DNA of 56,722 nt from Myxococcota bacterium (GCA_036482635.1 JAZFWH010000208.1:1-56722), one strand, 5' to 3'. Shown: positions 37,268-53,013, counted from the first letter of the stretch. The notes: generated by a model from the letters alone, not told the origin. A program made the numbers and translations.

Positions 37268-37307
37268 CGATCGCGTTCCCATTTCTACCCCGAGCTCCCA
37301 GGGCGAC

Positions 37308-37335: not shown

Positions 37336-37371
37336 TCGACAAGCCTCGGCGATCCGGGCTAGGCTTCAGGC

Positions 37372-37390: not shown

Positions 37391-37423
37391 AATTTACGCC
37401 GCCCCCGAGATCCCGGCCGATCC

Positions 37424-37789
37424 ATGCCCGTCCTCCCCGAACCCGATCCGCTCCCCGCGGCCCGCGCCGACGATGCCGCGGCCGCGATCCCGGGCGAGGC
37501 AGCCCAGGGCGACACGCCCGCGCGGGCGGTGCCGCTCGCCTCACTCGAGCCCGGCGCTTCGGGCGTGATCCAGGCCCTCGACGCGACCACACCCGCCGGG
37601 CGGCGGCTGCTCGACCTCGGCTTCGTACCGGACACCGAGGTGGCGGTCGTGCGGCGCGCGCCGCTCGGCGACCCGGTCGTGTACGAGCTGCGCGGCTACC
37701 GGATCTGCCTGCGGCGTCCCGAAGCGACGCGGGTTCTGGTGCTGCCGAGGGCGCCGAAGCCGCGAGCCGCCTCGGCGCGAGACGAGTGA
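37424..37789 (+). CDS. feoA: ferrous iron transport protein A
   Basis: 121 aa. C-terminal SH3-like FeoA domain LASLEPGASGVIQALD...RRLLDLGFVPDTEVAVVRRAPLGDPVVYELRGYRICLRR. Confidence 0.85.
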   Translation: MPVLPEPDPLPAARADDAAAAIPGEAAQGDTPARAVPLASLEPGASGVIQALDATTPAGRRLLDLGFVPDTEVAVVRRAPLGDPVVYELRGYRICLRRPEATRVLVLPRAPKPRAASARDE

Positions 37790-39678
37790 GCGAAGCCTCC
37801 TGGGCGGCGCCCCTGCGCCTCGGGCTGCTGGGCAGCCCGAACTCCGGCAAGACCACGCTCTTCAACGCACTCACGGGGATGCGCGCGAAGGTCGCCAACT
37901 ATCCCGGAGTCACGGTGGAGCGGCGGGAGGGGGAGACCGCCCTCGAGGGCCGGCGCGTCGCCGTCATCGACCTGCCGGGCACCTACAGCCTGGACCCGCT
38001 GAGCCCCGACGAGGACGTCGTGCTCAAGGCGCTGGAGGGCAAGCTCGCCGACGCCCCCGACGCGGTGGTGGTGGTCGCGGACGCCTGCTCGCTCGAGCGC
38101 TCGTTGCTGCTGCTGGGCCAGGTGCTGCGCCGCAACACCCCCACGTGCCTGGTGCTCACGATGACCGACGAGTTCGACGCCCGGGGCGGGCGGCTCGACT
38201 ACGCGCGCCTGGAGCGCGCGCTCGGCATTCCCGTGCTGGGCGTGGTCGGCCACAAGGGCCGCGGCCTGGTCGCCCTGCGGCGACTCCTCGCCAGGCCGGA
38301 GGGCTGGAGCCGGCCCCACCTCGTCCCGCCCGAGGACGCCGTGGGGCGCGCAGCGTGGGCCGACTCCATCCTGGCCAGCGTCGTTGCACAGCGCCCGGGC
38401 GCGAACCGCGTCACCGACGCCATCGATCGCGCGCTGCTTCACCCCGTGGCGGGAACGGCCGTCTTCGCCGCTGCGATGGTCCTCTTCTTCCAGCTCATCT
38501 TCGCCTGGGCACAGCCGGCGATGGACTTCATCGACGCGGGCGTCGGGCGGGGGTCGGCGGCGGTGCGGGCGCTGCTACCGGCTGGCCTGCTGGCGGACTT
38601 CCTCGCCGACGGGCTTCTCGCCGGGGTGGGCTCCGTGATCATCTTCCTGCCCCAGATCGTCCTGCTGTTCAGCCTGCTCTACCTGCTCGAGGACGTGGGC
38701 TACCTGGCACGGGCCGCCTTCGTCATCGACCGCGCGATGGGCCGGGTCGGTCTCGAGGGTCGCGCCTTCGTGTCGCTGCTCTCCTCCTACGCCTGCGCCG
38801 TCCCGGGAATCATGGCGACGCGCACCATTCCGTCGCCGCGCAATCGCCTCGTCACCATCCTGGTGGCGCCGCTCATGACCTGCTCCGCGCGCCTGCCGGT
38901 CTACGCGCTGCTGATCGGCGCCTTCGTGCCCGCAGTGACCGTCTTCGGACCGCTGGGGCTGCAGGGCCTCACGCTGCTCGGCCTCTACCTGTTCGGCCTG
39001 GCGTCGGCGCTGGGCGTCGCCGCGATCCTCAAGCGGACCATGCTGCGCGGAGACTCGATGCCCTTCTACATGGAGCTCCCGCCCTACCGCGTACCGACAC
39101 TGCGCCTGGTCGCGTCCCAGGTCTGGGGCAGCGCCTGGGCTTTCCTGCGCCGGGCCGGGACGATCATCCTGGCCGCGTCGATGGTGCTGTGGGTGCTGCT
39201 CACGTTTCCACGGGTGGAGCCGCCGGCGGAGCTGAGCGGCCGGGAGGCCAGCCTCTACGCGCTGGAGCGGAGCTTCGCGGGCAGGATCGGGCACGCCCTG
39301 GAGCCTGTCATCGAGCCCCTGGGCTTCGACTGGAAGATCGGGGTCGGCCTGCTCGCCAGCCTGGCCGCGCGCGAAGTGATGGTCGCGACCCTGGGGCAGA
39401 TCTACGCGATCACGGAAGACGGCGGCTCCCTGCGCGCGGCGGTCCGCGCCGACGTGGATCCGCGCAGCGGCCGGAAGGTCTTCAGCGGCGCGACCGTAGC
39501 CTCCCTGCTGGTATTCTTCGTGTTCGCGCTCCAGTGCGTATCGACGCTCGCCATCATGCGCCGGGAGACCAACTCGTGGGGCTGGCCCGCCTTCGCATTC
39601 GGCTATCTGCTCGCGCTCGCGTACGCGGCCAGCTTCGTCACCTACCGCGTCGCGGCCGCGCTGGGCGGCAGCGCGTGA
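37786..39678 (+). CDS. feoB: ferrous iron transporter B
   Basis: 630 aa. G-domain GSPNSGKTTLFNALTG, ANYPGVTVE, DLPGTYSL, then a polytopic permease domain. GTG overlaps the feoA TGA. Confidence 0.95.
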   Translation: MSEASWAAPLRLGLLGSPNSGKTTLFNALTGMRAKVANYPGVTVERREGETALEGRRVAVIDLPGTYSLDPLSPDEDVVLKALEGKLADAPDAVVVVADACSLERSLLLLGQVLRRNTPTCLVLTMTDEFDARGGRLDYARLERALGIPVLGVVGHKGRGLVALRRLLARPEGWSRPHLVPPEDAVGRAAWADSILASVVAQRPGANRVTDAIDRALLHPVAGTAVFAAAMVLFFQLIFAWAQPAMDFIDAGVGRGSAAVRALLPAGLLADFLADGLLAGVGSVIIFLPQIVLLFSLLYLLEDVGYLARAAFVIDRAMGRVGLEGRAFVSLLSSYACAVPGIMATRTIPSPRNRLVTILVAPLMTCSARLPVYALLIGAFVPAVTVFGPLGLQGLTLLGLYLFGLASALGVAAILKRTMLRGDSMPFYMELPPYRVPTLRLVASQVWGSAWAFLRRAGTIILAASMVLWVLLTFPRVEPPAELSGREASLYALERSFAGRIGHALEPVIEPLGFDWKIGVGLLASLAAREVMVATLGQIYAITEDGGSLRAAVRADVDPRSGRKVFSGATVASLLVFFVFALQCVSTLAIMRRETNSWGWPAFAFGYLLALAYAASFVTYRVAAALGGSA

Positions 39679-40529
39679 GGGACGCGGCCCTCGGCGCTCT
39701 CGCCCTGTTCCTGTGTGCGGCCCTGGGCGGCGGGTGCGCCACGCGCAACGTCCGCGAGGTCGCGTTCGAGTCGAAGGGGACGAAGGTCGAGTTGCGCACC
39801 CAGAAGAAGGGCACCCGGGTGGTCGAGCGAAACTTCGACCATCCGGCCACGATCGCCGGCGCCCGGCTCGCCCACATCCTCTCGCGCATCGACCTGCGCA
39901 TGGAGGCCAAGAAGGGCTCCAAGCGCGCGCCGGCCGTGCCCACCGAATCGCTCTACGTGATCGCCGACGGCCTCTCGCAGGCACTCAGCAAGGCGAATTC
40001 GAACCAGGAAATCGCGGTCCTGTCCATCTACAAGACCAAGCGCTTCGGGATCTTCGACCGCAAGTACCTGACCAGCTTCGTCGCGTACGTGCAGGAGGAC
40101 CTGCTCTACATCCACTTCTCCGCCTCGGACTGGAAGATCAAGACCCGTCACAAGAACGAGAAGCTCCCCCAACCGGCAATCGGCGAGTCGGTCATGCGCT
40201 TCCGCCTGCTGCCCTCCAAGGCCATGGCCCAGGTCGATTCGACCTCGCTCGCCGTGGACTGGCGCGACGAGATATTCCGCAGGCCCACGCGCACGCGCAT
40301 CACCGGGACCGGCCGCGTGGTGCGGCGCGAGATCCTGATGGAGAGCGAGCAGGAGCTCGAAGACGTCTCCAACGCGCCGACGATGCCCGAGCACCTCTCG
40401 CCGAGCACGCTGCGAGACCTGGCGGACGCCGAGGAGGGCAGGCTGAAGGGCGAGCTCAGCGAGGCGGAGTACCGGGCTCGCCGCCGCGAGATCCTGAAGG
40501 CCGCCGGGGCGCCGCCGCCCCCCGAATAG
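39675..40529 (+). CDS. putative lipoprotein with SHOCT-like C-terminal motif, translationally coupled to feoB
   Basis: GTG at 39675 overlaps the feoB TGA (GTGA). Signal peptide ALGALALFLCAALGGGCA has an imperfect lipobox. C-terminal GELSEAEYRARRREILKA resembles SHOCT. No family recognised for the ~230-aa core. Confidence 0.6.
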   Translation: MRDAALGALALFLCAALGGGCATRNVREVAFESKGTKVELRTQKKGTRVVERNFDHPATIAGARLAHILSRIDLRMEAKKGSKRAPAVPTESLYVIADGLSQALSKANSNQEIAVLSIYKTKRFGIFDRKYLTSFVAYVQEDLLYIHFSASDWKIKTRHKNEKLPQPAIGESVMRFRLLPSKAMAQVDSTSLAVDWRDEIFRRPTRTRITGTGRVVRREILMESEQELEDVSNAPTMPEHLSPSTLRDLADAEEGRLKGELSEAEYRARRREILKAAGAPPPPE

Positions 40530-40538
40530 CGGCATCCC

Positions 40539-40560
40539 CGGCGCGGCGCCCCCCGCGCCG
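40539..40560 (+). terminator. GC-rich hairpin after the lipoprotein gene
   Basis: CGGCGCGG-CGCCCC-CCGCGCCG, an 8-bp perfect stem, 10 nt after the stop codon. No U-tract. Confidence 0.4.
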
Positions 40561-40676
40561 ACGCCCCGAAGGCCCGGCAGCCGCGCTGCGTGTTCGCTGC
40601 ATCTTGTCACGCGGGCGCGGTTCCATACCCTGTTGGGCTTGCTCCGCCGGACCCGGAGCCCGCTGGAGACCCCCCG

Positions 40677-43600
40677 ATGAACGTCCTGCTCGAGATCGGC
40701 GCGATCGCCCTCGTCGCCGTGCTGGTGGCGCGCTTCGCCCGGCCGCCCTGGCGCAACCGCACCCTCAACCTGCTGAAGGTGGTCGTCACCTTCGAGGCCT
40801 TCCGGCTGCTGCTGACGCATCCGGTGACGATGGAGGACGGCAGCAAGGTCGTCGCGTGGCGGCTCGTGGTCGACACCGTCGGCGGGATCGAGCTCAGTAC
40901 GTTCCTGGTGTTCTGCGCCGCCGCGGCGGGCATCAAGTTCATCGGCATCCTCGCCTCGATGTACCGCTGGCAGGTCCTGCTGCGCGGGCAGGCGATCGAG
41001 CTGCCCTTCCGCCACATCTTCGGCTCGTTCCTGATCGGCCGCTTCATCGGAACCTTCCTGCCCAGCACCGCGGGCCTGGACGGCTACAAGCTGTACGACG
41101 CCGCGCGCTTCAGCGGCCGAACCGTCGAGGTCACCGCCACCACGGCGCTGGAGAAGGTGATCGGCGTCACCGGTATCTTCTCGTCGTTCCTGATCGCTCT
41201 GCCCTTCGGCTTCTCCCTGTTCGGTGACAACGCGGCCCTGATCGCTGGGGTCACCGTGCCCCTCTGCACCGGCCTGATCGGGGCACTCATGCTGGTGCTC
41301 TGGTTCCCCGGCATCATCCAGTGGTTCCTCGAGCACCTGCCCATCCCGGGCAAGGCGCGCCTCGAGGGCCTGGTGATGCGCGTCTCGCACTCGGCGGCCG
41401 CCTACCGCGGCCGGAAGCGGCTGGTGCTGCTGGCCTTCGCTCTCTCGTTCGTCGTCCACTTCACGACGGCCACCATGTACTGGTTCACCGCGCTGGCGAT
41501 CGGAGCCACGCAGGCCGAGTTCTGGCCCACCGTGCTCGGCTCTTCGGTGCAGATCCTGGCGACCGTCCTCTCGCCCTTCACCATCGCCGGCGAGGGGATC
41601 CGGGAGGCCGCGCAGTACTTCCTGCTCGGCAACGTGATCGGCCCCGCCAATGCGATCGTGTCGGCGGCCCTGGGCTTCTGGGCGGCCGAGGCGCTCACGA
41701 TGCTGGGGGCGTATTTCTGGTGGTTCCGGCCCAGGAACTACCACCCGGCCTTCTGCCGCGTGAACGGCGTCCAGGTCGACTACGCGGAGGCGGCGAAGGC
41801 GGCCGTCACGCTCGAGACGGACGAAGAGCGCGAGCGGCGCTCCGAGCGAGCGCTGTCGGCGCCGCCTCCCCTCTGGCAACGCGTGCGCCTGGGCGCCGCA
41901 CTCGGCCTGGCAAGCGGCCTGTGCGGCGGCCTGCTGATCGGCGCCGCCGAGTCGCTCGTGATCGCGCTGGGCGGCCTGGGCGGGGACGCCCAGGTGCTCT
42001 GGTACGGGCCCCTCGCCTACGCCGCGCTGCTGGGCGGACTCGGCTGCGCCGGCGGCGCGGCGCTGGCGGTCCTGCCGGTGGACCGCGAGGAAATCCGTGG
42101 CTGGACGCCCTCGCTGGTCCTGCTCGGCACGCTCCTGCCGTTCTCGCTGGCCATCTCGCTGTTCCGCATCCGCCGCGACGTGTTCCTCGAGCAGATGCCG
42201 CCGCTCCCGGTCCTGGCCGCGCTGCTGGGCGCCGCCGCGGCCGTGGCGCTGCTGCTCTTCCTGCTGGGCCCGCGCCTGTTCCGCACCCGCCTGGGCGACC
42301 TCGTGCGACCGCTCCCCGCGCTGGCCGCGCTGGGCGTCGTCGTCGCCGGCGGCGCCGTGGCGGGGCGCGTGCTGATGGGGAGCGGCGCCGATCGCCAGGC
42401 CCCGCCGCCGGTGCCCGCGGAGCTGCGCGAGCGGCCGAACGTGATCCTCGTGATGGTCGACACGCTGCGCGCCGACCACCTCTCCTGCTACGGCGCGCAG
42501 GACGTGAACACCCCGGCGCTGTGCAGCCTCGCCGGGGACGGCGGGGCGATCTTCGACGCCTACGCACACGCCTCCTGGACCAAGCCCTCGGCGGCGACGC
42601 TGCTCAGCTCGCTGCTGCCCTCGACCCACGGCGCCATCTCGAAGCCCGCGGCGCTCTCCGAGCAGGTGGAGATGCTCGCGGAGCCCATGCAGCGGAGGGG
42701 CTATGCGACGGGCGGCATCGTCTCCAACATCAACCTCGCACCGAGCTTCGGGTTCGACCAGGGCTACGACGAGTACCACTACCTGGCCCCCGACTACCTG
42801 GCCGGGGCGAAGGAGTCGTCCTCGAAGCTGATCCTCTACTCGATCGCGCGCGCGGTCTGGTTCAAGCGGAAGGGCGGCCTGCGAGTGGGCGACTTCTACC
42901 AGGACTCCGCCACCGTGAACGGCGTGGCCTTCGACTTCCTGGAGCGGCACCGCGACGCCCGCTTCTTCCTCTTCCTGCACTACATGGACCCGCACGACCC
43001 GTACTTCGTTCACCCGTACGACGGCCAGGCGATCGCGCGCGTGTCGAACCAGCACCCGGACGCCGCACTCGCCGCCGAGATGCGGCGGCTCTACGTCGGC
43101 GAGATCGAGTACCTCGACGCGAACTTCGCCGCCCTGCTCGAGAAGCTCCGCGAGCTGGACCTCTACGACGACACGCTGATCGCGCTGGTGGCCGATCACG
43201 GCGAGGAGTTCCAGGAGCACGACGGCTGGTGGCACGGACTCACCCTCTACGACGAGCAGATCCGCGTGCCCCTGCTGATCAAGTGGGGGGGGCGCGAGCG
43301 GTCGGTCGTGGGCGACGCCGGGGATCGCGTCGTCGGTCTGATCGACGTGGCGCCGACCCTGCTGGCCCGGGCCGGCGCCGAGATCCCGCCCGCCATGCAA
43401 GGCGTCGACCTGGCGGCCGAACCGCCGCCGGGAGATCGCATGGTCTTCGCCGAGGAGGACCACGAGGGCAACGTGCTGCGCGCCGTGCGCACCCGCGAGT
43501 GGAAGCTGATCGAGGTGATGGAGCAGCCGAGCCCGCGCGGCCTGAAGGCGCAGGAGCTCTACCACGTCGCCGAAGACCCGGGCGAGAGCCGCAATCTGCG

Positions 43601-43751
43601 GGCCGAGCGAGAGGAGATCGCGAGCGAGCTGCGCGCCCACGCCGAGGCCCAGGAGAAGCTCGCCAGGAGCCAGGCCACCGGCGCGGGCGAAGCGCGCCAG
43701 CTCACGGCCGCCGAGGAGGAGGCGCTCCGCGCGCTCGGCTACATCGACTAG
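40677..43751 (+). CDS. fusion protein: MprF-type flippase-like membrane domain (LPG_synthase_TM/UPF0104) + extra TM block + alkaline-phosphatase-superfamily (sulfatase-like) domain
   Basis: ATG at 40677 within track ORF 40590..43751. N-domain YRWQVLLRGQAIELPFRHIFGSFLIGRFIGTFLPSTAGLDGYKLYDA. C-domain VILVMVDTLRADHLSCYG...HASWTKPSAATLLSSLLPSTHG...LVADHGEEF. The sulfatase C/S-x-P-x-R position reads T-K-P-S-A. Confidence 0.8.
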   Translation: MNVLLEIGAIALVAVLVARFARPPWRNRTLNLLKVVVTFEAFRLLLTHPVTMEDGSKVVAWRLVVDTVGGIELSTFLVFCAAAAGIKFIGILASMYRWQVLLRGQAIELPFRHIFGSFLIGRFIGTFLPSTAGLDGYKLYDAARFSGRTVEVTATTALEKVIGVTGIFSSFLIALPFGFSLFGDNAALIAGVTVPLCTGLIGALMLVLWFPGIIQWFLEHLPIPGKARLEGLVMRVSHSAAAYRGRKRLVLLAFALSFVVHFTTATMYWFTALAIGATQAEFWPTVLGSSVQILATVLSPFTIAGEGIREAAQYFLLGNVIGPANAIVSAALGFWAAEALTMLGAYFWWFRPRNYHPAFCRVNGVQVDYAEAAKAAVTLETDEERERRSERALSAPPPLWQRVRLGAALGLASGLCGGLLIGAAESLVIALGGLGGDAQVLWYGPLAYAALLGGLGCAGGAALAVLPVDREEIRGWTPSLVLLGTLLPFSLAISLFRIRRDVFLEQMPPLPVLAALLGAAAAVALLLFLLGPRLFRTRLGDLVRPLPALAALGVVVAGGAVAGRVLMGSGADRQAPPPVPAELRERPNVILVMVDTLRADHLSCYGAQDVNTPALCSLAGDGGAIFDAYAHASWTKPSAATLLSSLLPSTHGAISKPAALSEQVEMLAEPMQRRGYATGGIVSNINLAPSFGFDQGYDEYHYLAPDYLAGAKESSSKLILYSIARAVWFKRKGGLRVGDFYQDSATVNGVAFDFLERHRDARFFLFLHYMDPHDPYFVHPYDGQAIARVSNQHPDAALAAEMRRLYVGEIEYLDANFAALLEKLRELDLYDDTLIALVADHGEEFQEHDGWWHGLTLYDEQIRVPLLIKWGGRERSVVGDAGDRVVGLIDVAPTLLARAGAEIPPAMQGVDLAAEPPPGDRMVFAEEDHEGNVLRAVRTREWKLIEVMEQPSPRGLKAQELYHVAEDPGESRNLRAEREEIASELRAHAEAQEKLARSQATGAGEARQLTAAEEEALRALGYID

Positions 43752-43788
43752 AGCCTCTCACGAACCGCCATCCACAGGCGCCCCCGCC
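43547..43788 (+). repeat. direct repeat copy A (3' 205 nt of the sulfatase-like CDS plus 37 nt downstream)
   Basis: Hand-aligned without gaps to 51033-51274 with 9 mismatches in 242 nt. Confidence 0.9.
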
Positions 43789-43807
43789 GATCGCGGCGGT
43801 GGGGCCC

Positions 43808-44812
43808 TCAGGCGGGAGACGCCTGATCCTTCCACATCGACTCCGCCAGGCGACGCAGCCCCTCCCCGATCGACACCGCGGGCTCGTAACCGAGGTCACG
43901 ACGGGCAGCGCGGATCTCGAACCAGTGCGCTGTCGATAGCTGGCGCGCGACGAAGCGAGTCAGCGGCGGCTCACTGCGGATCCGCAGCAGGCCGTAGACG
44001 AACTCGGCGAGCGCACCGATGCCGTAGGCGACGGACGACGGAATGTGCCGCGTCACCGGGGGCAGCCCAGCTGCGGCCAGGATACCGTTGGTGATCTCGG
44101 CGAGAGGCAGCGGCTCTCCGTTGCTGATGAAGTAGGCCTTGCCCGCACAGGCGGCGTGGGGTTCCAGACGATCCGCCGCAAGGATGTGGGCATCCGCTGC
44201 GTTGTCGATATAGACCGTGTCGATCATGTTGGACCGCTTGCCAATCAGGCACAGCCGCCCCGCCCGACCGCGGGCCACGATGCGGGGAATCAGATGGTTG
44301 TCGCCCGGACCCCAGATCAGATGGGGACGCAGGACCACGGTGCAGAGCTTCTCGCCGTTCGCCGCGAGCACTCTCTGCTCGGCAATTGCCTTGGTTCTCG
44401 GATAGTGAGCGGAAAACTCCTTCGCGTAGGGCAGCGACTCGTCACCGCCCTCGATGTCGCCGCCTGCGTGAACCACACTCGGCGTACTGGTGTACACGAG
44501 CTTCGTTACACCGTGAGCGCGGCAAGCCGCCAGCACGTTGTCGGTCCCGACGACATTGGTGCGGTGGTATTCCTCGTATGCGCCCCATACTCCCGGCAGC
44601 GCCGCCACGTGAAAGACCCGCTGGCAGCCTTCGACTGCGGCGGACACCGCCTCGGAGTCGCAGAGGTCTCCTCGTCGAACCTCGACGCCAAGCTTCTCGA
44701 GCTCCGGGTACGTGCCCCGGGAGAAGCTGCGCACGTCGTCGCCCCGTGCGAGCAGCCGCCGCACGATCGCACCACCGAGAAAGCCCCCTCCGCCGGTGAC
44801 GAGTGATCTCAT
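43808..44812 (-). CDS. oleD: OleD, NAD(P)H-dependent 2-alkyl-3-ketoalkanoate reductase (3beta-HSD/SDR-extended family)
   Basis: 334 aa. LVTGGGGFLGGAIVRRLL and YPRTK catalytic motifs. ATG overlaps the oleC TGA. Fourth gene of a colinear oleABCD set. Confidence 0.85.
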   Translation of the reverse strand: MRSLVTGGGGFLGGAIVRRLLARGDDVRSFSRGTYPELEKLGVEVRRGDLCDSEAVSAAVEGCQRVFHVAALPGVWGAYEEYHRTNVVGTDNVLAACRAHGVTKLVYTSTPSVVHAGGDIEGGDESLPYAKEFSAHYPRTKAIAEQRVLAANGEKLCTVVLRPHLIWGPGDNHLIPRIVARGRAGRLCLIGKRSNMIDTVYIDNAADAHILAADRLEPHAACAGKAYFISNGEPLPLAEITNGILAAAGLPPVTRHIPSSVAYGIGALAEFVYGLLRIRSEPPLTRFVARQLSTAHWFEIRAARRDLGYEPAVSIGEGLRRLAESMWKDQASPA

Positions 44813-46467
44813 GAGAGCTTTCGCGCCGCCCAGATGGCCAGCTTCTCGCGCCCGATCTTGGCATTGTGGCGGATGTCGACGGGGAATCCGCGGTGGTACA
44901 GCACGCAGCGGATGTCGCGGGTGTGCTCGTGCTCGGCGCCCAGCGCCAGCAGGTCACGCGTGAGCGTTGTGTCGGGCCGCACGCCCTTCTCGAGCTCCAC
45001 GCACAGCACCGGCCGGGTCTCTCCGTGGATCCGCGCTCCCACCAGTGCCGAACGATAGACCCTGGGATCCGCGTTGAAGACTGCCTCGCAGGGAACGGTG
45101 AAAAACGTGCGCGAAGTGGTTACCACGCGCTGGGTCTTGCGTCCGCAGAACCACAGCCGGCCCTGTTCGTCGAAACGGCCGAGGTCACCCATGCGATGGG
45201 AAAATCCTTCGCCCCGAGCGTCCCGGATCTTGGCCAATCTGGTGGCCCGCTCCCTTCGGAAGTAGGCGCGGGTGACCGGCGGACCTTTCACGACGATCTC
45301 CCCCACCTCGCCGGGAGGAACGCATAGGGCGTCGTCCCAGGTATCGATCGGACCGTCGTCGATGCGGATCAGGCTGACTCGCACAGGCGCCACCGGACGA
45401 CCTACGCAGATGCCTTCGCCTTGATCGCTTCGCTTGCGCGTTTCGCCCAGCACCTCGTCGCTGGCAATCGAGGCGACGGGCAGCGACTCGGTGGCGCCAT
45501 AGGGAGTGAAGATCTTTGCGTCCGACTCGAGCAGAGTCACGAAACGCTCCATTACCGTTGCGGAAACCGGCGCGCCGGCGGAGATCACCCGCCTGAGAGA
45601 AGGCAGCTTCACCCCGTGTTCCGCTCCATAGCGCCCCACGGTGTTGAGCAGGGCCGGCGAAGCGAACATGTTCGTGACACCGAAATCTTCGATCGCCTCG
45701 ATGATCTTCCGAGGGTCCACCCGCGCCGGGCGGGTCGGATCCATGTCGGGCACGATCGTGGTCATACCGAGCGCCGGATCGAAGAGTGCGAACAATGGGA
45801 AGGTAGGTAGGTCGATCTCCCCGGGACGGATGTCGTACAGTGTCCGGATCATCTCTACCTGGGCGGCGAAGTTGCCGTGGTCGTAGACCACGCCCTTGGG
45901 CACCCCCGTGCTGCCGCTGGTGAACACGATGGCCGCCACATCGCGCTCGCCGACCGGAGGAATCGGCTGCGGGGGCCGCTCGCGCCCGATTTCCTTCACC
46001 TGCGCGAGCGTATGGCCGCCCCAGAACAGGCGGCGTCCCAACGTGATCCGCGTCTTGATGGTCGCCCGGCCCCAGCCCAGAGCCACCCGTGCGGCGTGTG
46101 CCAGGGGGCTTCCGATGAAGGCCGCAGGTTCGGCCTCGCCCAGGCAAGTCGCGAGGCTTGCAAGGCCAATGCCCGGGTCGACCATGACCGGGACGGCGCC
46201 AGTCTTGAGCAGCGCGAAGGTGAGCGCAAAGAACTCCAGACTGGGGCGGACCATCAGGACCGTGCGCACACCGCGGCCCACACCCACCGCGTCCATGCCC
46301 CGAGCGATGAGATCGCTCTGGGCGTCGAGCTGGGCATAGGTGTAATGGGTGTAGCGGACCACGCCCTGCCGATCGCGGCCCTCGGGGTGGACGATGGCCA
46401 GCGCATGCGGCTGCTTTGCCGCCATCCGAGGCAGGAACGAGGCGATGCTGGCGAAGCTCTCGCTCAT
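44809..46467 (-). CDS. oleC: OleC, beta-lactone synthetase (ANL/AMP-dependent ligase superfamily)
   Basis: 552 aa. IVFTSGSTGVPKGV, YGATE, HRMGDLGRFDEQGRLWFCGRK, DIRHNAKIGREKL are typical of OleC-type 'fatty acid CoA ligase family' proteins. Overlaps oleB and oleD by 4 nt each. Confidence 0.85.
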   Translation of the reverse strand: MSESFASIASFLPRMAAKQPHALAIVHPEGRDRQGVVRYTHYTYAQLDAQSDLIARGMDAVGVGRGVRTVLMVRPSLEFFALTFALLKTGAVPVMVDPGIGLASLATCLGEAEPAAFIGSPLAHAARVALGWGRATIKTRITLGRRLFWGGHTLAQVKEIGRERPPQPIPPVGERDVAAIVFTSGSTGVPKGVVYDHGNFAAQVEMIRTLYDIRPGEIDLPTFPLFALFDPALGMTTIVPDMDPTRPARVDPRKIIEAIEDFGVTNMFASPALLNTVGRYGAEHGVKLPSLRRVISAGAPVSATVMERFVTLLESDAKIFTPYGATESLPVASIASDEVLGETRKRSDQGEGICVGRPVAPVRVSLIRIDDGPIDTWDDALCVPPGEVGEIVVKGPPVTRAYFRRERATRLAKIRDARGEGFSHRMGDLGRFDEQGRLWFCGRKTQRVVTTSRTFFTVPCEAVFNADPRVYRSALVGARIHGETRPVLCVELEKGVRPDTTLTRDLLALGAEHEHTRDIRCVLYHRGFPVDIRHNAKIGREKLAIWAARKLS

Positions 46468-47354
46468 TCGCTCGGGGGGTCGGCCAGGAATCGCTCGACC
46501 AGCGCGAGGATCTCGTCGCTCGCGTCTTCCAGCACGTAGTGGCCACAGTCGGGGAAGCGGTGCACCTCAGCGTCGGGAAGATGTTGCTGCCACACGTCGA
46601 GGAAGTGATGGTCGAACACGAAGTCCTTCTCGCCCCAGCAGATGAGCACCGGGGTGTCGGCAAACGACCCGAGCTTGCTCTCGACCTCGCTGATCAGATC
46701 GTAGCCACGGTCACCGGCCCGAAGAGGAATGTCCTGGACGAAGCGAAGCGTCGCGATGCGATTCTCCCAGGAGTCGTAGGGGGCGCAATAGGCGTCCCGC
46801 ACTTCCTTGGACAGGCGCCGTCGCGTGCAGCACACCCAGGCCGCGCCCCGGCTGAAGGCATTGAAGCGCCGGACCATGAACGCGGCGAACGATGTGTTGC
46901 GCACCCACCACAGCGCCGTCGGCAACTTCTTGGCTTTCGGCAGGTGGAAGGCGGCGGTATTGAGAAGCACCAGGCGGCGAATGCGATCGGGGTGACGCAC
47001 GGCCCAGGACATCCCGATCATGCCGCCCCAATCGTGCATCACCAGCGTCAGCTTCTGGTCGAGACCCAGGTCGTCCAAGAGTGCGTCGAGATCGTCGACC
47101 CGACGCTCGAGTGAGTACTCGTAGCGCGTGTCGTCGGGCTTGTCGGACAGGCCGCAACCGATGTGATCCGGAACGATGATCCGATACCGGTCGCGCAGGC
47201 CGCGCACCAGGTCGCGGTAGTAGAACGACCAGGTGGGGTTTCCGTGGAGCATGACGACCGGCTCGCCCTTGCCCTCGTCGAGATAGTGGTACCGCAACCC
47301 GCCGAGGTTGAAATGGCGGCCCTCGAAGGGATACAGCGAGGTCGAGACTCGCAT
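46464..47354 (-). CDS. oleB: OleB, beta-lactone decarboxylase (haloalkane-dehalogenase-like alpha/beta hydrolase)
   Basis: 296 aa. VVMLHGNPTWSFYYR, nucleophile motif VMHDWGG, C-terminal CGHYVLED. Confidence 0.85.
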   Translation of the reverse strand: MRVSTSLYPFEGRHFNLGGLRYHYLDEGKGEPVVMLHGNPTWSFYYRDLVRGLRDRYRIIVPDHIGCGLSDKPDDTRYEYSLERRVDDLDALLDDLGLDQKLTLVMHDWGGMIGMSWAVRHPDRIRRLVLLNTAAFHLPKAKKLPTALWWVRNTSFAAFMVRRFNAFSRGAAWVCCTRRRLSKEVRDAYCAPYDSWENRIATLRFVQDIPLRAGDRGYDLISEVESKLGSFADTPVLICWGEKDFVFDHHFLDVWQQHLPDAEVHRFPDCGHYVLEDASDEILALVERFLADPPSE

Positions 47355-47356
47355 TC

Positions 47357-48373
47357 CTACCAGAGGATGCCGGCCGCCGCACAGTTGATGCCGCTCCCGA
47401 TCCCACCCATCAGGACCTTGTCTCCCTTTTTGATGCGCCCCTCATCCAGGGCCTTCGAGAGCACTGTCGGCACACCGGCCGGGCCGATGTTGCCGAACTC
47501 GGGGTAGATGAGCAGGCACTTGTCGGGAGCGATGCCGAGGGTCTCGACGAGCTGGGAGGAGTGCACCTTGCTGATCTGGTGCATGGCGAACTCGTCGATA
47601 TCGTCACTGGACCAGCCCAGAAACTTCTGGCCCACCGACCAGGCCTTCGATGAAACCTCGAGGCCCGCGAGCAGGAGCTTTCTGGTATCGGTCTTCATCT
47701 CGTCGACCTGGCCGGTGCACAGCCGGTTGTGCGAGGTGGCAGCGACTTTGACCCCCCCCAGATAGCGCGGCGCTTCGGGGCTGAATTCCGAGCGCGTGAG
47801 CACCATCGCCGCCGCACCCGATCCGAGGGTGAGGGCGGCGAACTGCTCGCGAAACATCTTCTCGTCGCTATCTTCGCGATTGAGGCGTTCGATCGTCGTC
47901 TCGGTGATGTAGCGACTGCTCTCGCCGTCCACCACGAGCCCGTACTCGATCTCACCGCGCTCGATCATATTTCCGACGATGTCCATGCCGTTGAGAAAAC
48001 CCAGGCAGGCGTTGCCGACGTCGAAGTTGATGCAGTGCTCTCCGAGCTGGAGATTCCTGTGAACCAGACAGGCCACTGAAGGCTCGATGTAATCTCGACA
48101 TACAGATGTGTTGATGACAATCCCGATGCGATCCCGGTTGATGCCGGACTCCTCGATCGCCCGCTCGGCGGCCATGGAGGCGACCTCGCTCGGCTCTACT
48201 CCTGGATCCCAGAACCGCCTTGCGCTGATTCCGGCCAGCGCCTCGAGCATGCCCGGCCGGATGTCGAGACGGTCGAGAGTCGGCATGAGCTGTTCGTCGA
48301 GCTCAGCGGAGGTGATCCGATGTGGCGCGTCGTAGTGGCGAACGCTGGCGATCGAAACGTGCTCGAACTTCAA
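47357..48373 (-). CDS. oleA: OleA, thiolase-fold (FabH-like) head-to-head acyl-CoA condensing enzyme
   Basis: Track ORF 47357..48469. TTG at 48373 lies 8 nt after GGGGAGGA and gives MKFEHVSIASVRHYDAPHRITSAELDEQL, an OleA-like N-terminus. Active-site motif NACLGF. Ends ...GGIGSGINCAAAGILW. Confidence 0.85.
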   Translation of the reverse strand: MKFEHVSIASVRHYDAPHRITSAELDEQLMPTLDRLDIRPGMLEALAGISARRFWDPGVEPSEVASMAAERAIEESGINRDRIGIVINTSVCRDYIEPSVACLVHRNLQLGEHCINFDVGNACLGFLNGMDIVGNMIERGEIEYGLVVDGESSRYITETTIERLNREDSDEKMFREQFAALTLGSGAAAMVLTRSEFSPEAPRYLGGVKVAATSHNRLCTGQVDEMKTDTRKLLLAGLEVSSKAWSVGQKFLGWSSDDIDEFAMHQISKVHSSQLVETLGIAPDKCLLIYPEFGNIGPAGVPTVLSKALDEGRIKKGDKVLMGGIGSGINCAAAGILW

Positions 48374-48689
48374 GATGAATGTCCTCCCCGGCGCAGGTCG
48401 GTTCAACAGGGAACGGCCGAGGAGGGATCGGCGCGTCGTGGACCAATCACGTATCGGCGAATTCGCCACCGGCGTTAGCCTTCTCGCAGCGGCTGCGATG
48501 AGACGGACCAGACCGAGTGTATTTCCCCCCGCTTTGACAGAACGAAAGAATTCTGACCCGCTCCGATCAGATCACGTCAGGATCTGGTCGGGACCTCATC
48601 GCGGAGGCGAAGCAACCGAACCCGCCATTGGGGATGATTCAGCGTCTCGATGTGTCCAACTCCGGGCACGCTCCAGAGCCGCGCGGAGG

Positions 48690-48872
48690 GACCGACCGCG
48701 CGCCCCTGCAGCCGCACCGCGTTGAGACCTTCAAGTTCAGCACCGATCCGAACCTCGAGGACCAAGATGGCCGACATTGTCGGTCTGCACCTCGATCCAC
48801 CGGAGCGTGCCCTCGTCCTCTGCGTCGACGAGAAGTCTCAAATCCAAGCTCTCAACCGGACGCAGCCTCGAA
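48690..48872 (+). mobile_element. internal relic of an IS630-family transposase gene (frameshifted, both ends missing)
   Basis: [22 protein letters not shown] (frame of ORF 48628) then, after a 1-nt shift near 48765, [35 protein letters not shown] (frame of ORF 48650). This matches the conserved IS630 block ...[48 protein letters not shown]. Confidence 0.7.
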
Positions 48873-48939
48873 ACCCTGTTGCAGTGACGATCCGCCCCCA
48901 GCGCGAAACACGGTGCGCCGCGCAAGAGTCACATCGCAG

Positions 48940-49353
48940 CGCAGGGAGAGGGAGACCCTGGCCATCGTCCGCTACCACCAGGTCGTCACCCGCAAGTCCA
49001 ACGACGAGGTCTTTCACGACCAGATCGGATACTGGACGTGGGATCCCGCCACCAGGATGATCGCGCAGTCCGTCAACATCCCGAGAGTTGTCGCAGTGCT
49101 CGCCGGAGGTTCGTTCGAAGGCGACGCGAGCGGATCCGAGGTTGTCCTCGACGTGTATGCGAAGAAAGGTGATCCCGACTGGGGGATCATCGAGTCGCCC
49201 TTCATGCGAGACAACGCGAGCACGGTGGCGCTCGAACACCGCCTCGATGTCAGCGGCGACTGCATGAGCTACTCGGAGACGACGTCGCTCGACATCTACG
49301 GCCGCAAGTTCGATCACAACGACACGAAAAAGCTGACACGGACCTCGGGCTGA
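48940..49353 (+). pseudogene. 5'-truncated heme-binding beta-barrel (nitrobindin/DUF1794, FABP-like) gene
   Basis: [37 protein letters not shown]...LEHRLDVSGDCMSYSETTSLDIYGRKFDHNDTKKL resembles the C-terminal ~130 aa of this family. The usual N-terminal ~35 aa are replaced by IS630-relic sequence. Confidence 0.5.
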
Positions 49354-49365
49354 CCCCAGCTACTT

Positions 49366-49446
49366 CGCCTACGGTCCCAAGAACCTGAGATCCCCGGGGG
49401 TGTCGTCATGACCGGAGGTTCTCGGACCTCGAATCCCAGTTGAAGC
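49366..49446 (+). repeat. structured intergenic repeat, copy 1 (81 bp)
   Basis: CGCCTACGGTCCCAAGAACCTGAGATCCCCGGGGG...ACCGGAGGTTCTCGGACCTCGAATCCCAGTTGAAGC. Shares its ends and core with copies at 51334 and 52892. Internal inverted repeat GGTCC-CA-AGAACC / GGTTCT-C-GGACC. Confidence 0.85.
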
Positions 49447-49503
49447 ACGAGCTCACGGCCGCCGAGGAGGAGGCGCTCCGCGCGCTCGGCTACATCGACT
49501 AGA
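49447..49503 (+). repeat. third, short copy of the sulfatase-like gene 3' end (57 bp, includes the stop codon)
   Basis: ACGAGCTCACGGCCGCCGAGGAGGAGGCGCTCCGCGCGCTCGGCTACATCGACTAGA is identical to the corresponding part of copy B (51033-51274). It carries copy B's CACGAG variant rather than copy A's CGCCAG. Confidence 0.85.
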
Positions 49504-49614
49504 AGCTGTCTCAGAATCCGGTATCGACAGCTACCCAGATTGCCCGTGGAGCCGTGACCAGCCGCCAGGGGGTTGCCCGAGCGCTCCGCTCCCGCTGTGC
49601 GGGCGCCTCGCGCG

Positions 49615-50232
49615 CTATTTCGACACCCGGGTGATCTTCGAGCCCTGGATCCCCACGCCCCCCATCAGGCCCTTCTGGTCGAAGATGAAGGCGTAGACGT
49701 CCTGGGTGAGCGTCGTGCTGGTGAGCGACTTCGCCCCGCCCTCGTCCAAGACGACCAGGCTCGGGCCCGCGCCGAGCTCGAAGCCCCCGCTCTTGTCGAG
49801 GTAAGCGAGCGCGGAGTCGCTCATGAAGAAGAGTGCGTAGCCAAAGACCTGCGCGCCGGCCTGGAAGCCGTAGGAGGCCGCCACGGAGTTGTAGAAGCCG
49901 GCGACCTTGCCACCGCGGAAGAGCGCCCCCTCGCCGAGCTGGCCGCCGAACATGAAGCCCGCCTTCACCATCTTGGGGAAGACCAGGACGCCATGGGCCT
50001 TGTCCCGCAGCAGACGCGCGCCGGGGTTCTTGCGGTAGAGTTTCTCGAGGGTGGCGCGGGCGTCGCGCTCGATCGACTGGCCGCTGGCGGCCGTGGCCGG
50101 CACCGGTGCGGCCGGGCCGAGGACGAGCGTTGCAAGCAGCAGGGCCACCACGGGCCCCGAGAGCCGGGTGATCACGGGTGCTCCTCTCCAGGGGCGTCCG
50201 CTCCGGAAGCCCTTCTCCATGCCGCCCCTCAT
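49615..50232 (-). CDS. secreted SYLF (DUF500/Ysc84-like) domain protein
   Basis: Last 205 aa of track ORF 49615..51183. Signal-like LSGPVVALLLATLVLGPAAPVPATAAS. SYLF pattern VLVFPKMVKAGFMFGGQLGEGALF...YGFQAGAQVFGYALFFMSDSAL...FELGAGPSLVV. ATG at 50232 overlaps the upstream TGA. Confidence 0.75.
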   Translation of the reverse strand: MRGGMEKGFRSGRPWRGAPVITRLSGPVVALLLATLVLGPAAPVPATAASGQSIERDARATLEKLYRKNPGARLLRDKAHGVLVFPKMVKAGFMFGGQLGEGALFRGGKVAGFYNSVAASYGFQAGAQVFGYALFFMSDSALAYLDKSGGFELGAGPSLVVLDEGGAKSLTSTTLTQDVYAFIFDQKGLMGGVGIQGSKITRVSK

Positions 50233-50705
50233 TGCTCGATCACCGGGATCGATGCGGCGAGCTCGTAGAACATGACTGCGTAGATCTTGGTCTCGATCTG
50301 GTAGAAGCGCATCAGCGTGCGGCCCGGCAGCGCCTCGGCGAAGAGCTCCACGTACGAGTGCCGGAGCGCCACGCGGTCGCGTTGGACGGCGAGGTAGGTG
50401 TCGACGAGCTTGCGCGCCTCGTCGTCCTTCGTGCTCCCGAAGGTCCGCTTGTAGTCGTCGATCACCTGGAGGAGGCGATCGCCAACGACCGTGAGCTCCG
50501 CCTGGTAGCGGTCGTAGACTGGCCAGAACGCGCGGGCCTGCTCGTCGCTGAGCGCGAGGTTCACGGCGACGAGCGCCTTCTTGTTGCTGCGGAGCGTGTC
50601 CCGCAGGATTTCCATGCTGGCTTCGTCCGCCTCCCCGGCGCCGGCCGGCGCCGCGGCAAAGACGAACGGCAGCAGAACGGCGAGGACCCAGCTGGTTTTC
50701 GACAT
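50229..50705 (-). CDS. secreted hypothetical protein (helical), co-operonic with the SYLF gene
   Basis: ATG at 50705 is preceded by AAGAGGAAG. Signal peptide MSKTSWVLAVLLPFVFAAAPAGA. No family recognised. Confidence 0.6.
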   Translation of the reverse strand: MSKTSWVLAVLLPFVFAAAPAGAGEADEASMEILRDTLRSNKKALVAVNLALSDEQARAFWPVYDRYQAELTVVGDRLLQVIDDYKRTFGSTKDDEARKLVDTYLAVQRDRVALRHSYVELFAEALPGRTLMRFYQIETKIYAVMFYELAASIPVIEQ

Positions 50706-50862
50706 GGTTGGTGTCTTCCTCTTTTCCACTCCGGGCCTGCCCGTACCCCCACCGAGGCTCGAAGCGGACGGAGCACACGCTATCTCCGCGAGCCAGCGTC
50801 AGCCAGCTCCGGGCCCGACCACCCCGCCGCTGCTGGCAGCGCTGGCGCGCGGCCCGGTACCA

Positions 50863-50893
50863 AACTCCGCTCGGCTGCGCGTCGCGGCGCGCG
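50863..50893. repeat. dispersed copy of the 19985/20034 repeat core
   Basis: AACTCCGCTCGGCTGCGCGTCGCGGCGCGCG versus AACTCCGCTCGGCTGCGCCTCGCTGCGCGC. The first 18 nt are identical. Confidence 0.6.
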
Positions 50894-50908
50894 AGCTGGG
50901 CCCGCTTG

Positions 50909-51040
50909 CTAGCGGCGGGAGGCGTGGACCTCCGGAAGCCGCTCGGCCCAGGGGTAGGCCTCCCCGAGCTGCCCGGCCACGCGCAGCAGCAGATCTTCGC
51001 GGCCCGTCGCGGCCACCAGCTGCACGCCGATCGGCGCAGG
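50909..51040 (-). pseudogene. C-terminal relic of an amidase-signature-family gene
   Basis: Minus-strand translation PAPIGVQLVAATGREDLLLRVAGQLGEAYPWAERLPEVHASRR* resembles the conserved amidase C-terminus (LPVGLQLIG..F.E..LLR.A..LE). The frame is cut at 51040, where repeat copy B begins. Confidence 0.45.
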
Positions 51041-51274
51041 AGCTCTACCACGTCGCGGAAGACCCGGGCGAGAGCCGCAATCTGCGGGCCGAGCGAGAGC
51101 AGATCGCGAGCGAGCTGCGCGCCCACGCCGAGGCCCAGGAGAAGCTCGCCAAGAGCCAGGCCACCGGCACCGGCGAAGCGCACGAGCTCACGGCCGCCGA
51201 GGAGGAGGCGCTCCGCGCGCTCGGCTACATCGACTAGAGCCTGTTACGAACCGCCATCCACAGGCGCCCCCGCC
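51033..51274 (+). repeat. direct repeat copy B of the sulfatase-like gene 3' end (orphan fragment)
   Basis: Encodes ELYHVAEDPGESRNLRAEREQIASELRAHAEAQEKLAKSQATGTGEAHELTAAEEEALRALGYID* with no upstream gene body. 233 of 242 nt identical to 43547-43788. Confidence 0.9.
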
Positions 51275-51333
51275 CCGAGGAGAACGTCCTCTGCGGCGTG
51301 GGCCAGGGGGGCTGGAAACCTTCCTCGCCCCCC

Positions 51334-51429
51334 CGCCTACGGTCCTAAGAGTCCTAAGAACCCGAGATCCGCGGGGAAGTTGTCATCACCGGAGGTTCTC
51401 GGACCTCGAAACCCGGTTGAAGTGACTAT
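51334..51429 (+). repeat. structured intergenic repeat, copy 2 (96 bp)
   Basis: ~90% identical to copy 3 by hand alignment (10 mismatches in 96). Relative to copy 1 it contains an extra AAGAGTCC(T/C) duplication. Confidence 0.85.
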
Positions 51430-51430
51430 A

Positions 51431-51673
51431 TCCCCCAACATGGTGGAGCAGGGCGAGTCGCCCTGTCTCCCGCCCGCCCGCCTCGAGGAGCTCGGCTACA
51501 AGATTCTCGCCTATCCGCTCACCCTGCTGTCGAGCGCCGCCCGGGCGATGCGCGACGCCCCGACCGCCCTGCGCGTCGGGGCTCCCCCCGCCGATGCGCC
51601 GCTCGACTTCTCGGAGCTCCAGGAGGTCGTCGGCTTCGACCACTACCACGCTGAGCGAACCCGCTACGAGTGA
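51431..51673 (+). pseudogene. 3' relic (~80 aa) of an isocitrate-lyase/PEP-mutase-family gene
   Basis: SPNMVEQGESPCLPPARLEELGYKILAYPLTLLSSAARAMRDA...FSELQEVVGFDHYHAERTRYE* matches the C-terminal ...ANMVEGGKTP.L...EL.ELGY.I.IYP... region of 2-methylisocitrate-lyase-like proteins. Homology starts exactly at the right end of repeat copy 2. Confidence 0.55.
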
Positions 51674-51944
51674 GTGGTCCGCGTTGCGAGAGGATACGGA
51701 CGACACCCTCTGCGCATCGATCCAACCACACGTGGTCTGGAGCGAGCGGTCATTCCAGTCGCGGAATTCTGCTGGGACAGCCAGGTCGTTCCTCGGGAGG
51801 TCTTTCGCTGCGCAGCCGGGATGTCGCGATCTCACAAGACTTTTACATTTCTTGCCAGCCCCCGGGTCGAATCCTTCTATAGACTTCCACCTCTCTGTCC
51901 CCCCCCAAAAGAGACAGACGAGAGAATCGAAGCACGCTGATCCG

Positions 51945-52862
51945 ATGGCTCGCCTTCCGGCATCTTCTCGCGGCCCGGGCGATCCGCGCGCCGTGCGGGA
52001 GTTCGACTTGGAAGCCAGTCTGGAGCCTGGGAGCATCGAGGGAAGCGGTCGCATTACCGCGACCGCCGCTCGCCGGGGAACCATCTTGAAATACAAGGCC
52101 GACCGCGGTCCCATCGCCTACGTGGTGGCGGTCTTCATCCTTCGCCTGGCAATCTGGGCCCTGGCGACGCCGTTGATCTGCGCGATGAGTGTAATTCCGC
52201 TGACGGTGCTCGGCATATTCATCGCCCCAATCAACCACCACCATCAGCACGTCAACTCGTTCCGCGCCCCATGGCTGAACCGACTCTACGACCTGGTGTT
52301 ATCCCTGCAGTGCGGCGTCGGGCCCTATAGCTGGGTGCTCCACCATAACCTCGGACATCATGTCAACTACCTGAACCAGCCTCCCCACGAGCGTCCCGAC
52401 GAATCCCGTTGGACACGAGCCGACGGTACGCAGATGGGTCGCCTCGAGTACTCCATCGATCTGCTCCTCCACCATCAGATCGACATTGTCCGCGTCGGGC
52501 TGCACCATCCGAGATACTTCCGCTACTTCCTGCTGATGAAGCTGCCACTCTGGGGCTTGATCGGTGTCGGGCTCTGGCTTCGCCCGCTGGAGACCGTGCT
52601 CGTCTTTCTGGTGCCGGCCTTCTTCACGCTCTTTCACACGATATGGGCCACCTACGAGCACCATGCGGGCTGTCTGTCGAACGACCACCTCCATGCCAGC
52701 CGCAGCCGCGACAATCGCCTCTACAACGCGCTGACTGGCAACCTCGGGCTCCACACCGCCCACCACAAGCGCCCCGGATTGCATTGGTCGCTCTTGCCCG
52801 TCCTGCACGAAAAGATCCGGGACCAGATTCCAAAGGAACAGATCCTCGAGACGTTCTGGTAG
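51945..52862 (+). CDS. membrane fatty-acid desaturase family protein (di-iron, three His boxes)
   Basis: ATG at 51945 within track ORF 51594..52862, 305 aa. His boxes NHHHQH, HNLGHH and HTAHH. Local GC is ~55% by spot count. Confidence 0.75.
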   Translation: MARLPASSRGPGDPRAVREFDLEASLEPGSIEGSGRITATAARRGTILKYKADRGPIAYVVAVFILRLAIWALATPLICAMSVIPLTVLGIFIAPINHHHQHVNSFRAPWLNRLYDLVLSLQCGVGPYSWVLHHNLGHHVNYLNQPPHERPDESRWTRADGTQMGRLEYSIDLLLHHQIDIVRVGLHHPRYFRYFLLMKLPLWGLIGVGLWLRPLETVLVFLVPAFFTLFHTIWATYEHHAGCLSNDHLHASRSRDNRLYNALTGNLGLHTAHHKRPGLHWSLLPVLHEKIRDQIPKEQILETFW

Positions 52863-52891
52863 TCGCATGCTCGAGGGTGGATTCGAGGTTT

Positions 52892-52987
52892 CGCCTACAG
52901 TCCAAAGAGTCCCAAGAACCTGAGATCCCCGGGGGAGCTGTCACAACCGGAGGTTCTCGGACCTCGAAACCCGGTTGAAGCGACTAT
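52892..52987 (+). repeat. structured intergenic repeat, copy 3 (96 bp)
   Basis: CGCCTACAGTCCAAAGAGTCCCAAGAACCTGAGATCCCCGGGGGAGCTGTCACAACCGGAGGTTCTCGGACCTCGAAACCCGGTTGAAGCGACTAT. Lies between the desaturase stop and the P450 stop. Confidence 0.85.
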
Positions 52988-53013
52988 CCGCATTCAGTTG
53001 GATTCGTGCCTTG

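Follow-up and report, generated by a model that had tools for sequence, protein, structure and literature searches.

A direct repeat of 242 nt, made of the 3' end of a conserved gene, brackets an olefin-synthesis (ole) cluster in the DNA analysed here, and the question raised by this locus is whether the two copies are the attachment (att) sites of an integrated island or the scar of another kind of recombination. The stretch analysed (the window) is 56,722 nt long; it is the entire contig GCA_036482635.1 JAZFWH010000208.1 from a metagenome-assembled genome (MAG) of the Myxococcota, and three other assemblies have contigs that overlap it. The duplicated gene, here called S, encodes a flippase-like and sulfatase fusion protein, and the amidase gene that pairs with it is called A. 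An earlier note on the window had read the repeat as the footprint of site-specific integration, or of serial accretion at one att site, and the ole cluster as part of an integrated island. The evidence presented below indicates that the repeat is probably the scar of ordinary recombination in a hot spot, where a mosaic was assembled by stepwise insertion anchored in S, and not an att site.

Copies of the S 3' end

The features that carry the argument are the following:

40677-43751, plus strand: S, flippase-like (LPG_synthase_TM) and sulfatase fusion gene, 1024 aa (Pfam)
43547-43788, plus strand: S tail copy A, last 205 nt of S and a 37-nt spacer
49445-49503, plus strand: S tail copy C, last 56 nt of S and the stop codon, 59 nt
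50909-51035, minus strand: amidase 3' relic, stop and last 40 codons (the 40 codons at 50915-51034)
51030-51036: novel joint of amidase tail and S tail, GATCGGC/GCAGGAG, with the 3-nt microhomology GGC at 51033-51035
51033-51274, plus strand: S tail copy B (orphan), 205 nt of coding sequence and a 37-nt spacer

A repeat search of the window recovered copies A and B as a direct repeat of 242 nt, 96% identical (96.3% when the two S tails are compared), ungapped and in the same orientation. BLAST of the second strain against the window returned the same pair with 9 mismatches and 0 gaps, so that both the coordinates and the mismatch count given earlier were reproduced. The S stop codon lies at 43749-43751, which confirms that copy A consists of 205 nt of coding sequence plus 37 nt; it ends within the left arm of a G+C-rich hairpin. 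Copy B was likewise recognized correctly as an orphan abutting an amidase relic, the last 40 amidase codons lying on its left on the minus strand. The third copy, C, is 100% identical to B and carries the B variants, as had been noted, and its extent is 59 nt rather than the 57 bp first reported. Its homology to A and B ends precisely at the stop codon and it then runs into the 3' region of a gene for a SYLF-domain lipoprotein.

At repeat columns 150 and 152, B and C share bases and A differs, and B carries three private changes at columns 25, 68 and 120. The left ends of the duplicated tails also differ, copy B beginning at s-205 and copy C at s-56, with no common core boundary, and the left joint of copy C, with a repeat designated D3 (see below), has at most 1 nt of shared sequence. 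Outside the copies, no significant homology was detected between A and B beyond +37 (541 of 2000 shuffles scored as well), between the spacer of copy C and the 37-nt spacer, or between the sequences to the left of the two amidase stops. The mismatches between A and B are of the types C/G, G/C, G/A and C/T; a diversity-generating retroelement was considered and rejected, the mismatches not being adenine-specific and no reverse transcriptase domain occurring in the open reading frames (ORFs) scanned.

A core of 42 nt within the repeat is present 3 times in the window, the expectation from shuffles being 0.00 (none in 100 shuffles), and no duplication of the S tail was found among the relatives' loci. 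The possibility that copy B is the tail of a paralogue family dispersed over unrelated loci was not borne out by either comparison.

The joint at the orphan copy

The sequence fused to the left side of the orphan bears on the origin of the repeat. Compared with the amidase found next to S in relatives, the relic matches the C-terminus (residues 443-482) at 68-80% identity, and it is 96.9% identical over 127 nt to the 3' end of the full-length amidase gene of the same species. The latter (483 aa, minus strand) lies past the window end on same-species contigs, ~8 kb to the right of the relic. In the window the minus-strand A tail directly abuts the plus-strand S tail B, the two matches overlapping by 3 nt, such that the distal end of the S-to-A segment is placed against its proximal end. 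The order A tail then S tail is a circular permutation of the ancestral order S tail, spacer, A tail, with strands unchanged. A joint of this kind arises by tandem duplication or, just as well, where a circle excised between A and S has closed before its reinsertion by homologous recombination; it is not producible by crossover between att sites and is not an attR.

Both ends of the segment are duplicated with similar divergence (96.3% identity for the S tails, 96.9% for the A tails). The interior is not duplicated: one copy holds the DNA from ole to SYLF and the other that from a desaturase gene to DXS, and the two share D3 repeats only. Interiors that differ in this way speak for two alleles having merged rather than for a simple duplication.

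The S-amidase gap is a variable hot spot

Gene order was compared across 40 related loci, comprising 2 close metagenome loci (S 71-74% identical) and 38 loci from species representatives of GTDB. S orthologues are 55-74% identical in Myxococcota MAGs and mostly adjoin FeoB. The relatives share a common backbone consisting of the Nuo operon, FeoAB, a 285-aa gene, S (plus strand), A (minus strand) and a Cys/Met-metabolism gene (plus strand), and S is a conserved backbone gene serving as the homologous anchor. S is followed by a convergent amidase in 20 of the 40 loci, and the amidase is missing in a few. The S and A stops are 0-90 nt apart in the six tightest loci, five of which (L001, L004, L007, L024 and L028) have them within 0-30 nt; in other relatives S and A are separated by 0.6-8 kb of unrelated cargo, for example genes for a porin, ion channels, short-chain dehydrogenases and a HAD hydrolase, and no integrase occurs in this cargo. 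None of the 40 loci carries ole, SYLF, desaturase or P450 genes in the S-A gap. The gap is therefore a variable hot spot, and its empty site has the amidase directly after S, rather than the region to the right of 51274 as integration between the repeats had led the earlier note to predict.

In the source species, 15.4 kb of mosaic DNA separates the S stop from the amidase stop. From left to right, this gap contains S tail A with its 37 nt, oleDCBA, an IS630 relic, a D3 piece, a THAP4-like ORF and D3 copy 1; then S tail C, the SYLF gene, a 158-aa gene and the A tail relic (the last three on the minus strand) and S tail B with its 37 nt; and finally D3 copy 2, a 77-aa ORF, the desaturase gene, D3 copy 3, P450, enoyl-CoA hydratase, amidohydrolase, TetR and DXS genes and the full amidase. 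The ole cluster thus sits immediately downstream of S in this gap, the content of which varies among relatives, and more than one S tail is present, in line with the earlier suggestion of serial accretion at one place.

Composition and origin of the ole block

G+C content in 1-kb windows is 0.70-0.73 before 44 kb and 0.61-0.67 after it, returning to 0.70 at 50-51 kb; the drop inferred earlier from spot counts is real and smaller than those counts implied. G+C content at third codon positions (GC3) falls from 0.87-0.95 to 0.74-0.83 for most genes to the right, as follows:

20 upstream genes: 0.87-0.95
S: 0.95
ole genes: 0.75-0.82
THAP4-like ORF: 0.83
SYLF gene: 0.93
158-aa gene: 0.92
77-aa ORF: 0.90
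desaturase to DXS: 0.75-0.81
full amidase: 0.92

The left compositional boundary, at 43.8 kb, is real. At 51274, where the right-hand border of the proposed island should lie, GC3 gives no compositional boundary; low-GC3 genes resume at ~52 kb and continue for 7.9 kb further to the full amidase. A core-like block (49.4-51.7 kb) is thus embedded between two foreign-like blocks. Elsewhere in the window, the Nuo operon region (25000-36000) has low total G+C (0.62-0.68) yet a GC3 of ~0.9; this dip is due to the amino-acid composition of membrane proteins and not to foreign DNA, and spot G+C counts mislead there.

The closest OleA outside the species, 83% identical, is encoded in another Myxococcota MAG (L049), which shares 79% nucleotide identity with the window across 3.4 kb and has genes with a GC3 of 0.78-0.82. 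By comparison, the nearest homologues of S and of the amidase outside the species are just 74-75% identical. Together with the GC3 of the ole genes, this difference points to horizontal acquisition, and the ole block, which is foreign-like in codon composition, probably came from a lower-GC lineage of the same phylum. In this respect the description of ole as lying on foreign-looking DNA was upheld, the cluster being absent from this position in 40 of 40 related loci. What survives of the integrated island is acquired DNA at an accretion-prone site; the att or integrase mechanism and the proposed right-hand boundary are not supported.

Conservation of the junctions between assemblies

Two assemblies of the same species carry the same structure as the window. 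Contig L041, from a second strain, covers window positions 30676-48545 at 99.67% identity, and L042 (with L044 and L047) covers 48405-56722 at 99.76% and then extends 12 kb further to the right. A third strain is represented by L048 (ENA ERZ23498366), which matches 44958-48731 (oleC to oleA) at 98.9% and diverges from the window at 48731, inside the IS630 relic, indicating that the relic zone differs between strains. The fourth sequence is L043 (ENA ERZ23498363), a 1568-nt scaffold that contains the amidase-S joint and a full 205-nt S tail followed by a SYLF-type spacer. Its S tail has neither the A-private nor the B-private changes, and the terminal 32 nt of the scaffold, upstream of the 158-aa gene, match no compared sequence.

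The junction of S tail A with ole recurs in L041, that of oleA with the IS630 relic in L048, and those of D3 with tail C, of the A tail with S tail B and of tail B with D3 in L042. The amidase-S joint is present in three assemblies (window, L042 and L043), L043 coming from another sample and a separately produced assembly. As every junction is shared by two or more assemblies, it is unlikely that the structure was created by misassembly. The end of L041 and the start of L042 overlap by 141 nt (48405-48545), which suggests a branch in the assembly graph just upstream of oleA.

Divergence between strains is uneven along the locus. In the interval between the repeats, 6 single-nucleotide polymorphisms (SNPs) in 7486 nt separate two strains, against 73 in 18561 nt of the flanks (p=3.5e-6), and a 5.0-kb tract (46519-51560) has zero SNPs between the window and the second strain (L041/L042), where the flanks differ by ~0.39%. 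The SNP-free tract suggests recent exchange or a sweep of the region comprising oleBA, the relics, SYLF and the orphan.

Proposed stepwise homology-anchored insertion

The homology of copy C ends at the S stop and continues into the SYLF region, and an allele with the order S, SYLF, 158-aa gene and amidase must therefore have existed. Most probably, the mosaic was built by successive homology-anchored insertions, and the simplest history of this kind needs two of them. DNA arriving from other strains would have paired with the resident S, either by single crossover of a circular fragment or by homology-facilitated illegitimate recombination, and its far end would have been joined illegitimately inside the resident S tail, leaving that tail behind as a downstream orphan. 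In a first step, a segment consisting of S tail, SYLF, 158-aa gene and A tail would have been placed before the resident S tail B with its 37 nt, the genes from desaturase to DXS and A; the join at -205 would have left orphan B. In a second step, S tail A with its 37 nt, oleDCBA, the relics and D3 would have been placed ahead, with a join at -56 that cut the then-resident tail to the 59-nt copy C. The ole block would be the newest arrival, and the few SNPs between the repeats, the SNP-free tract at 46519-51560 and the junction of strain 3 at 48731 all fit such a late arrival.

Both kinds of event assumed here have precedents. Single crossover of circular molecules has been observed experimentally to produce 109-950 bp duplications of a homologous locus (PMC3240628). 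As in joints of the Campbell or tandem-duplication type, the distal end is joined to the proximal one, both ends occur twice in direct orientation and there is a microhomology of 3 nt; at this locus, in contrast, the two segment copies hold unlike interiors, and the event is deduced from metagenome assemblies. Arrays of orphaned 3' ends in Rhs and type VI secretion system (T6SS) effector-immunity loci have been ascribed to sequential displacement by homology-facilitated illegitimate recombination (PMC5361080). The locus resembles these arrays in its conserved upstream anchor, in the placing of new DNA beside the anchor, in the orphan 3' ends downstream (C and B, both in the orientation of the intact S and with illegitimate left joints), in the lack of an integrase and, possibly, in the variation of the array between strains. 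It differs from them in that the cargo is metabolic (olefin synthesis, lipid-modifying enzymes) and not toxin or immunity genes, the anchor is a sulfatase-fusion gene and one orphan carries a piece of the downstream neighbour gene.

Several observations weigh against stepwise insertion. The proposed alleles, S-SYLF-158 aa-A and an orphan-free S-37 nt-desaturase...-A, are not seen on their own. Both the ole block and the second block start exactly 37 nt past an S stop, within the left arm of a G+C-rich hairpin, so that either related alleles or a preferred site is needed. By our own reading of the alignments, non-synonymous changes make up 9 of the 11 differences in coding sequence between the duplicated tails, a pattern explained at least as well by decay following an old in-situ duplication as by divergence between donor and recipient. 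The SNP-poor tract begins inside oleB/C (46519) and not at copy A. Finally, all the sequences are short-read metagenome assemblies, and L043 may be either a real alternative arrangement or a switch of assembler path within a 59-nt identical stretch.

If stepwise insertion is correct, the locus shows the route by which one uncultured lineage of Myxococcota gained an ole cluster, this being one component of the mosaic that accumulated where two conserved convergent genes are separated by a gap of variable content. It also carries a caution for island prediction, as a duplicated gene 3' end beside foreign-looking DNA can be the scar of duplication or displacement and not an att site; here the two are told apart by what is fused to the orphan and by how the genes are ordered in relatives. 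In other respects the locus illustrates ordinary genome plasticity.

Alternative origins of the repeat

The most serious alternative, which we nevertheless regard as unlikely, is an in-situ tandem duplication of ~370 nt (S tail, 37-nt spacer and A tail) by microhomology, with foreign DNA entering both spacers later; in detail, both insertions would have occurred at the same point, the top of an inter-gene hairpin. The topology of the joint and its 3-nt microhomology fit this history, as does the fact that both fillers begin at +37 and both amidase-tail homologies at the stop codon. The hypothetical empty site is predicted to fold as a hairpin with the insertion point in its loop, the S and A stops of relatives are indeed 0-30 nt apart, and the predominance of non-synonymous differences is that expected of relics decaying in place. 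Against these points, copy C is left unexplained, joined as it is directly to a different spacer and the SYLF genes; two insertions at one bond are required; the core-like GC3 of the SYLF and 158-aa genes suggests old residents of the S-A gap rather than later insertions; and the small duplication is seen in no relative.

Site-specific integration, or serial accretion, with an attB in the S 3' end, the repeats as attL and attR and the recombinase encoded elsewhere or lost, is considerably less probable still. Integrase-encoding islands that duplicate gene 3' ends include e14 or phage 21 in icd and islands in tRNA and tmRNA genes, and the gene-end duplication of e14 in icd of E. coli is reportedly of comparable size (165 nt), which counts in favour of this origin. 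The locus resembles such islands in the direct repeat of a 3' end with few mismatches, the retention of an intact gene and the position of the orphan beyond lower-GC DNA. The attL/attR-like repeat does bracket DNA of lower GC3, all three S tails have one orientation, and divergence between strains is lower in the inter-repeat interval than in the flanks. Unlike these islands, the locus lacks an integrase: Pfam and the gene lists revealed no recombinase or integrase domain in any ORF of the 15.4 kb from the S stop to the full-length amidase, and among the upstream ORFs that were scanned (20 of the ~34 window ORFs called for GC3) Pfam likewise revealed no recombinase. The orphan is not followed by the native neighbour of S, the 3' end of which stands instead on the wrong side, joined to the orphan by microhomology, and the right-hand compositional boundary does not match the repeat. 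The unequal left ends of the S tails and the integrase-free gap cargo of relatives tell equally against it. No tRNA or tmRNA target is found within the window, no Rfam family reaches its gathering score (the lone weak hit is to a eukaryotic long non-coding RNA model, E=0.13), and scans for intrinsic terminators and promoters returned sites no more frequently than in shuffles. With no recombinase in the gap and a duplication or circle joint at the orphan, the att mechanism proposed in the earlier note is not sustained.

The D3 repeat offers a further set of candidate sites. It is a ~100-nt repeat with a conserved 12-14-bp hairpin (CTGAGATCCCCGG...CCGGAGGTTCTCGG), and all its copies are on the plus strand:

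48866-48898, plus strand: D3 partial 3' piece, abutting the IS630 relic
49366-49446, plus strand: D3 copy 1, 3'-truncated at its join with S tail C
51334-51438, plus strand: D3 copy 2 (repeat search)
52892-52997, plus strand: D3 copy 3 (repeat search)

Two distant copies occur in Joint Genome Institute (JGI) metagenomes (L045, 4212-4285; L046, 2323-2399), and D3 is found neither elsewhere in the window nor in the relatives' loci. It is highly improbable that the locus is a series of D3-bounded cassettes, in which the D3 hairpins would act as recombination sites like those of integrons or of miniature inverted-repeat transposable elements (MITEs) and the S and A tails would be passengers between D3 copies. 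Copies 1 and 2 do flank the core-like block, every copy stands after a gene 3' end and before a 5'-truncated relic, and the hairpin is kept in the distant copies. An attC identity was nonetheless rejected, there being no RYYYAAC/GTTRRRY boxes, no integron integrase and a folding energy like that of shuffles (z -0.45 to +0.32), with no covariation; a MITE was rejected as well, as neither terminal inverted repeats nor target duplications were seen. D3 matches no Rfam family, and the amidase-S joint is independent of it.

Little probability likewise attaches to a combined arrangement, in which the S 3' end with its terminator hairpin would be a genuine attachment site for a recombinase encoded elsewhere and D3 would supply cassette-end sites; if true, the ole cluster would have been captured by an integron-like cassette platform of Myxococcota whose integrase lies at a distance.

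Least probable of all is a chimeric contig joining strain variants via the repeats, to which the short-read origin of all the data, the break between L041 and L042 within their overlap and the conflicting path of L043 might point, given that every junction recurs in at least one other assembly and that copies A and B share no exact match anywhere near 141 nt in length.

Gene content of the gap and neighbouring features

The remaining features of the gap within the window are listed below; Pfam, NCBIfam and tblastn support the olefin genes, IS630 relic, truncated genes and SYLF gene that had been recognized between the repeats.

43808-44812, minus strand: oleD (Pfam; NCBIfam OleD model, 481 bits)
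44809-46467, minus strand: oleC (Pfam; NCBIfam olefin beta-lactone synthetase, 723 bits)
46464-47354, minus strand: oleB (Pfam)
47357-48373, minus strand: oleA (Pfam; NCBIfam PRK09258, 440 bits)
48700-48870, plus strand: relic of an IS630-family transposase, ~56 codons, frameshifted and truncated at both ends (tblastn)
48913-49353, plus strand: THAP4-like haem-binding barrel ORF, the domain lacking its first ~40 profile positions
49615-50220, minus strand: SYLF-domain lipoprotein gene (Pfam, NCBIfam)
50229-50705, minus strand: 158-aa gene (ORF)
51440-51673, plus strand: 77-aa orphan ORF with no family match
52086-52862, plus strand: fatty-acid desaturase gene, first of the second low-GC3 block
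53014-56722: P450 (minus), enoyl-CoA hydratase (minus), amidohydrolase (minus) and the start of a TetR gene (plus) (Pfam; GC3 0.75-0.81)

The ole genes overlap at 44809-44812 and 46464-46467, and the four families lie in one operon. As in OleABCD clusters for head-to-head olefin synthesis, there are four co-directional overlapping genes, encoding a FabH-like thiolase, an alpha/beta hydrolase, an AMP-dependent beta-lactone synthetase and a reductase of the 3beta-HSD family; the difference is that OleC and OleD score below the strict equivalog cut-offs of NCBIfam (723 vs 900 and 481 vs 580 bits), and their function is predicted. The IS630 relic is ~80% identical to annotated IS630 transposases by tblastn, and exact-protein look-ups returned no match for S (long start), OleC or the 77-aa ORF. 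Past the window end, L042 and L044 continue with DXS and the full amidase (both minus strand), CysMet, Ogt, a sigma54 regulator, GSH synthetase and PBP; to the right of the full amidase this backbone is the same as that of the relative L002.

Two minor observations concern neighbouring genes. Lipid-modifying genes adjoin the olefin cluster at 51940-56722 and beyond on L044 and L047, and a functional link with ole is possible. Upstream, at 21302-25103, a gene for seryl-tRNA synthetase adjoins that for SelB, the elongation factor for selenocysteine, a hint that selenoproteins are used in this MAG.

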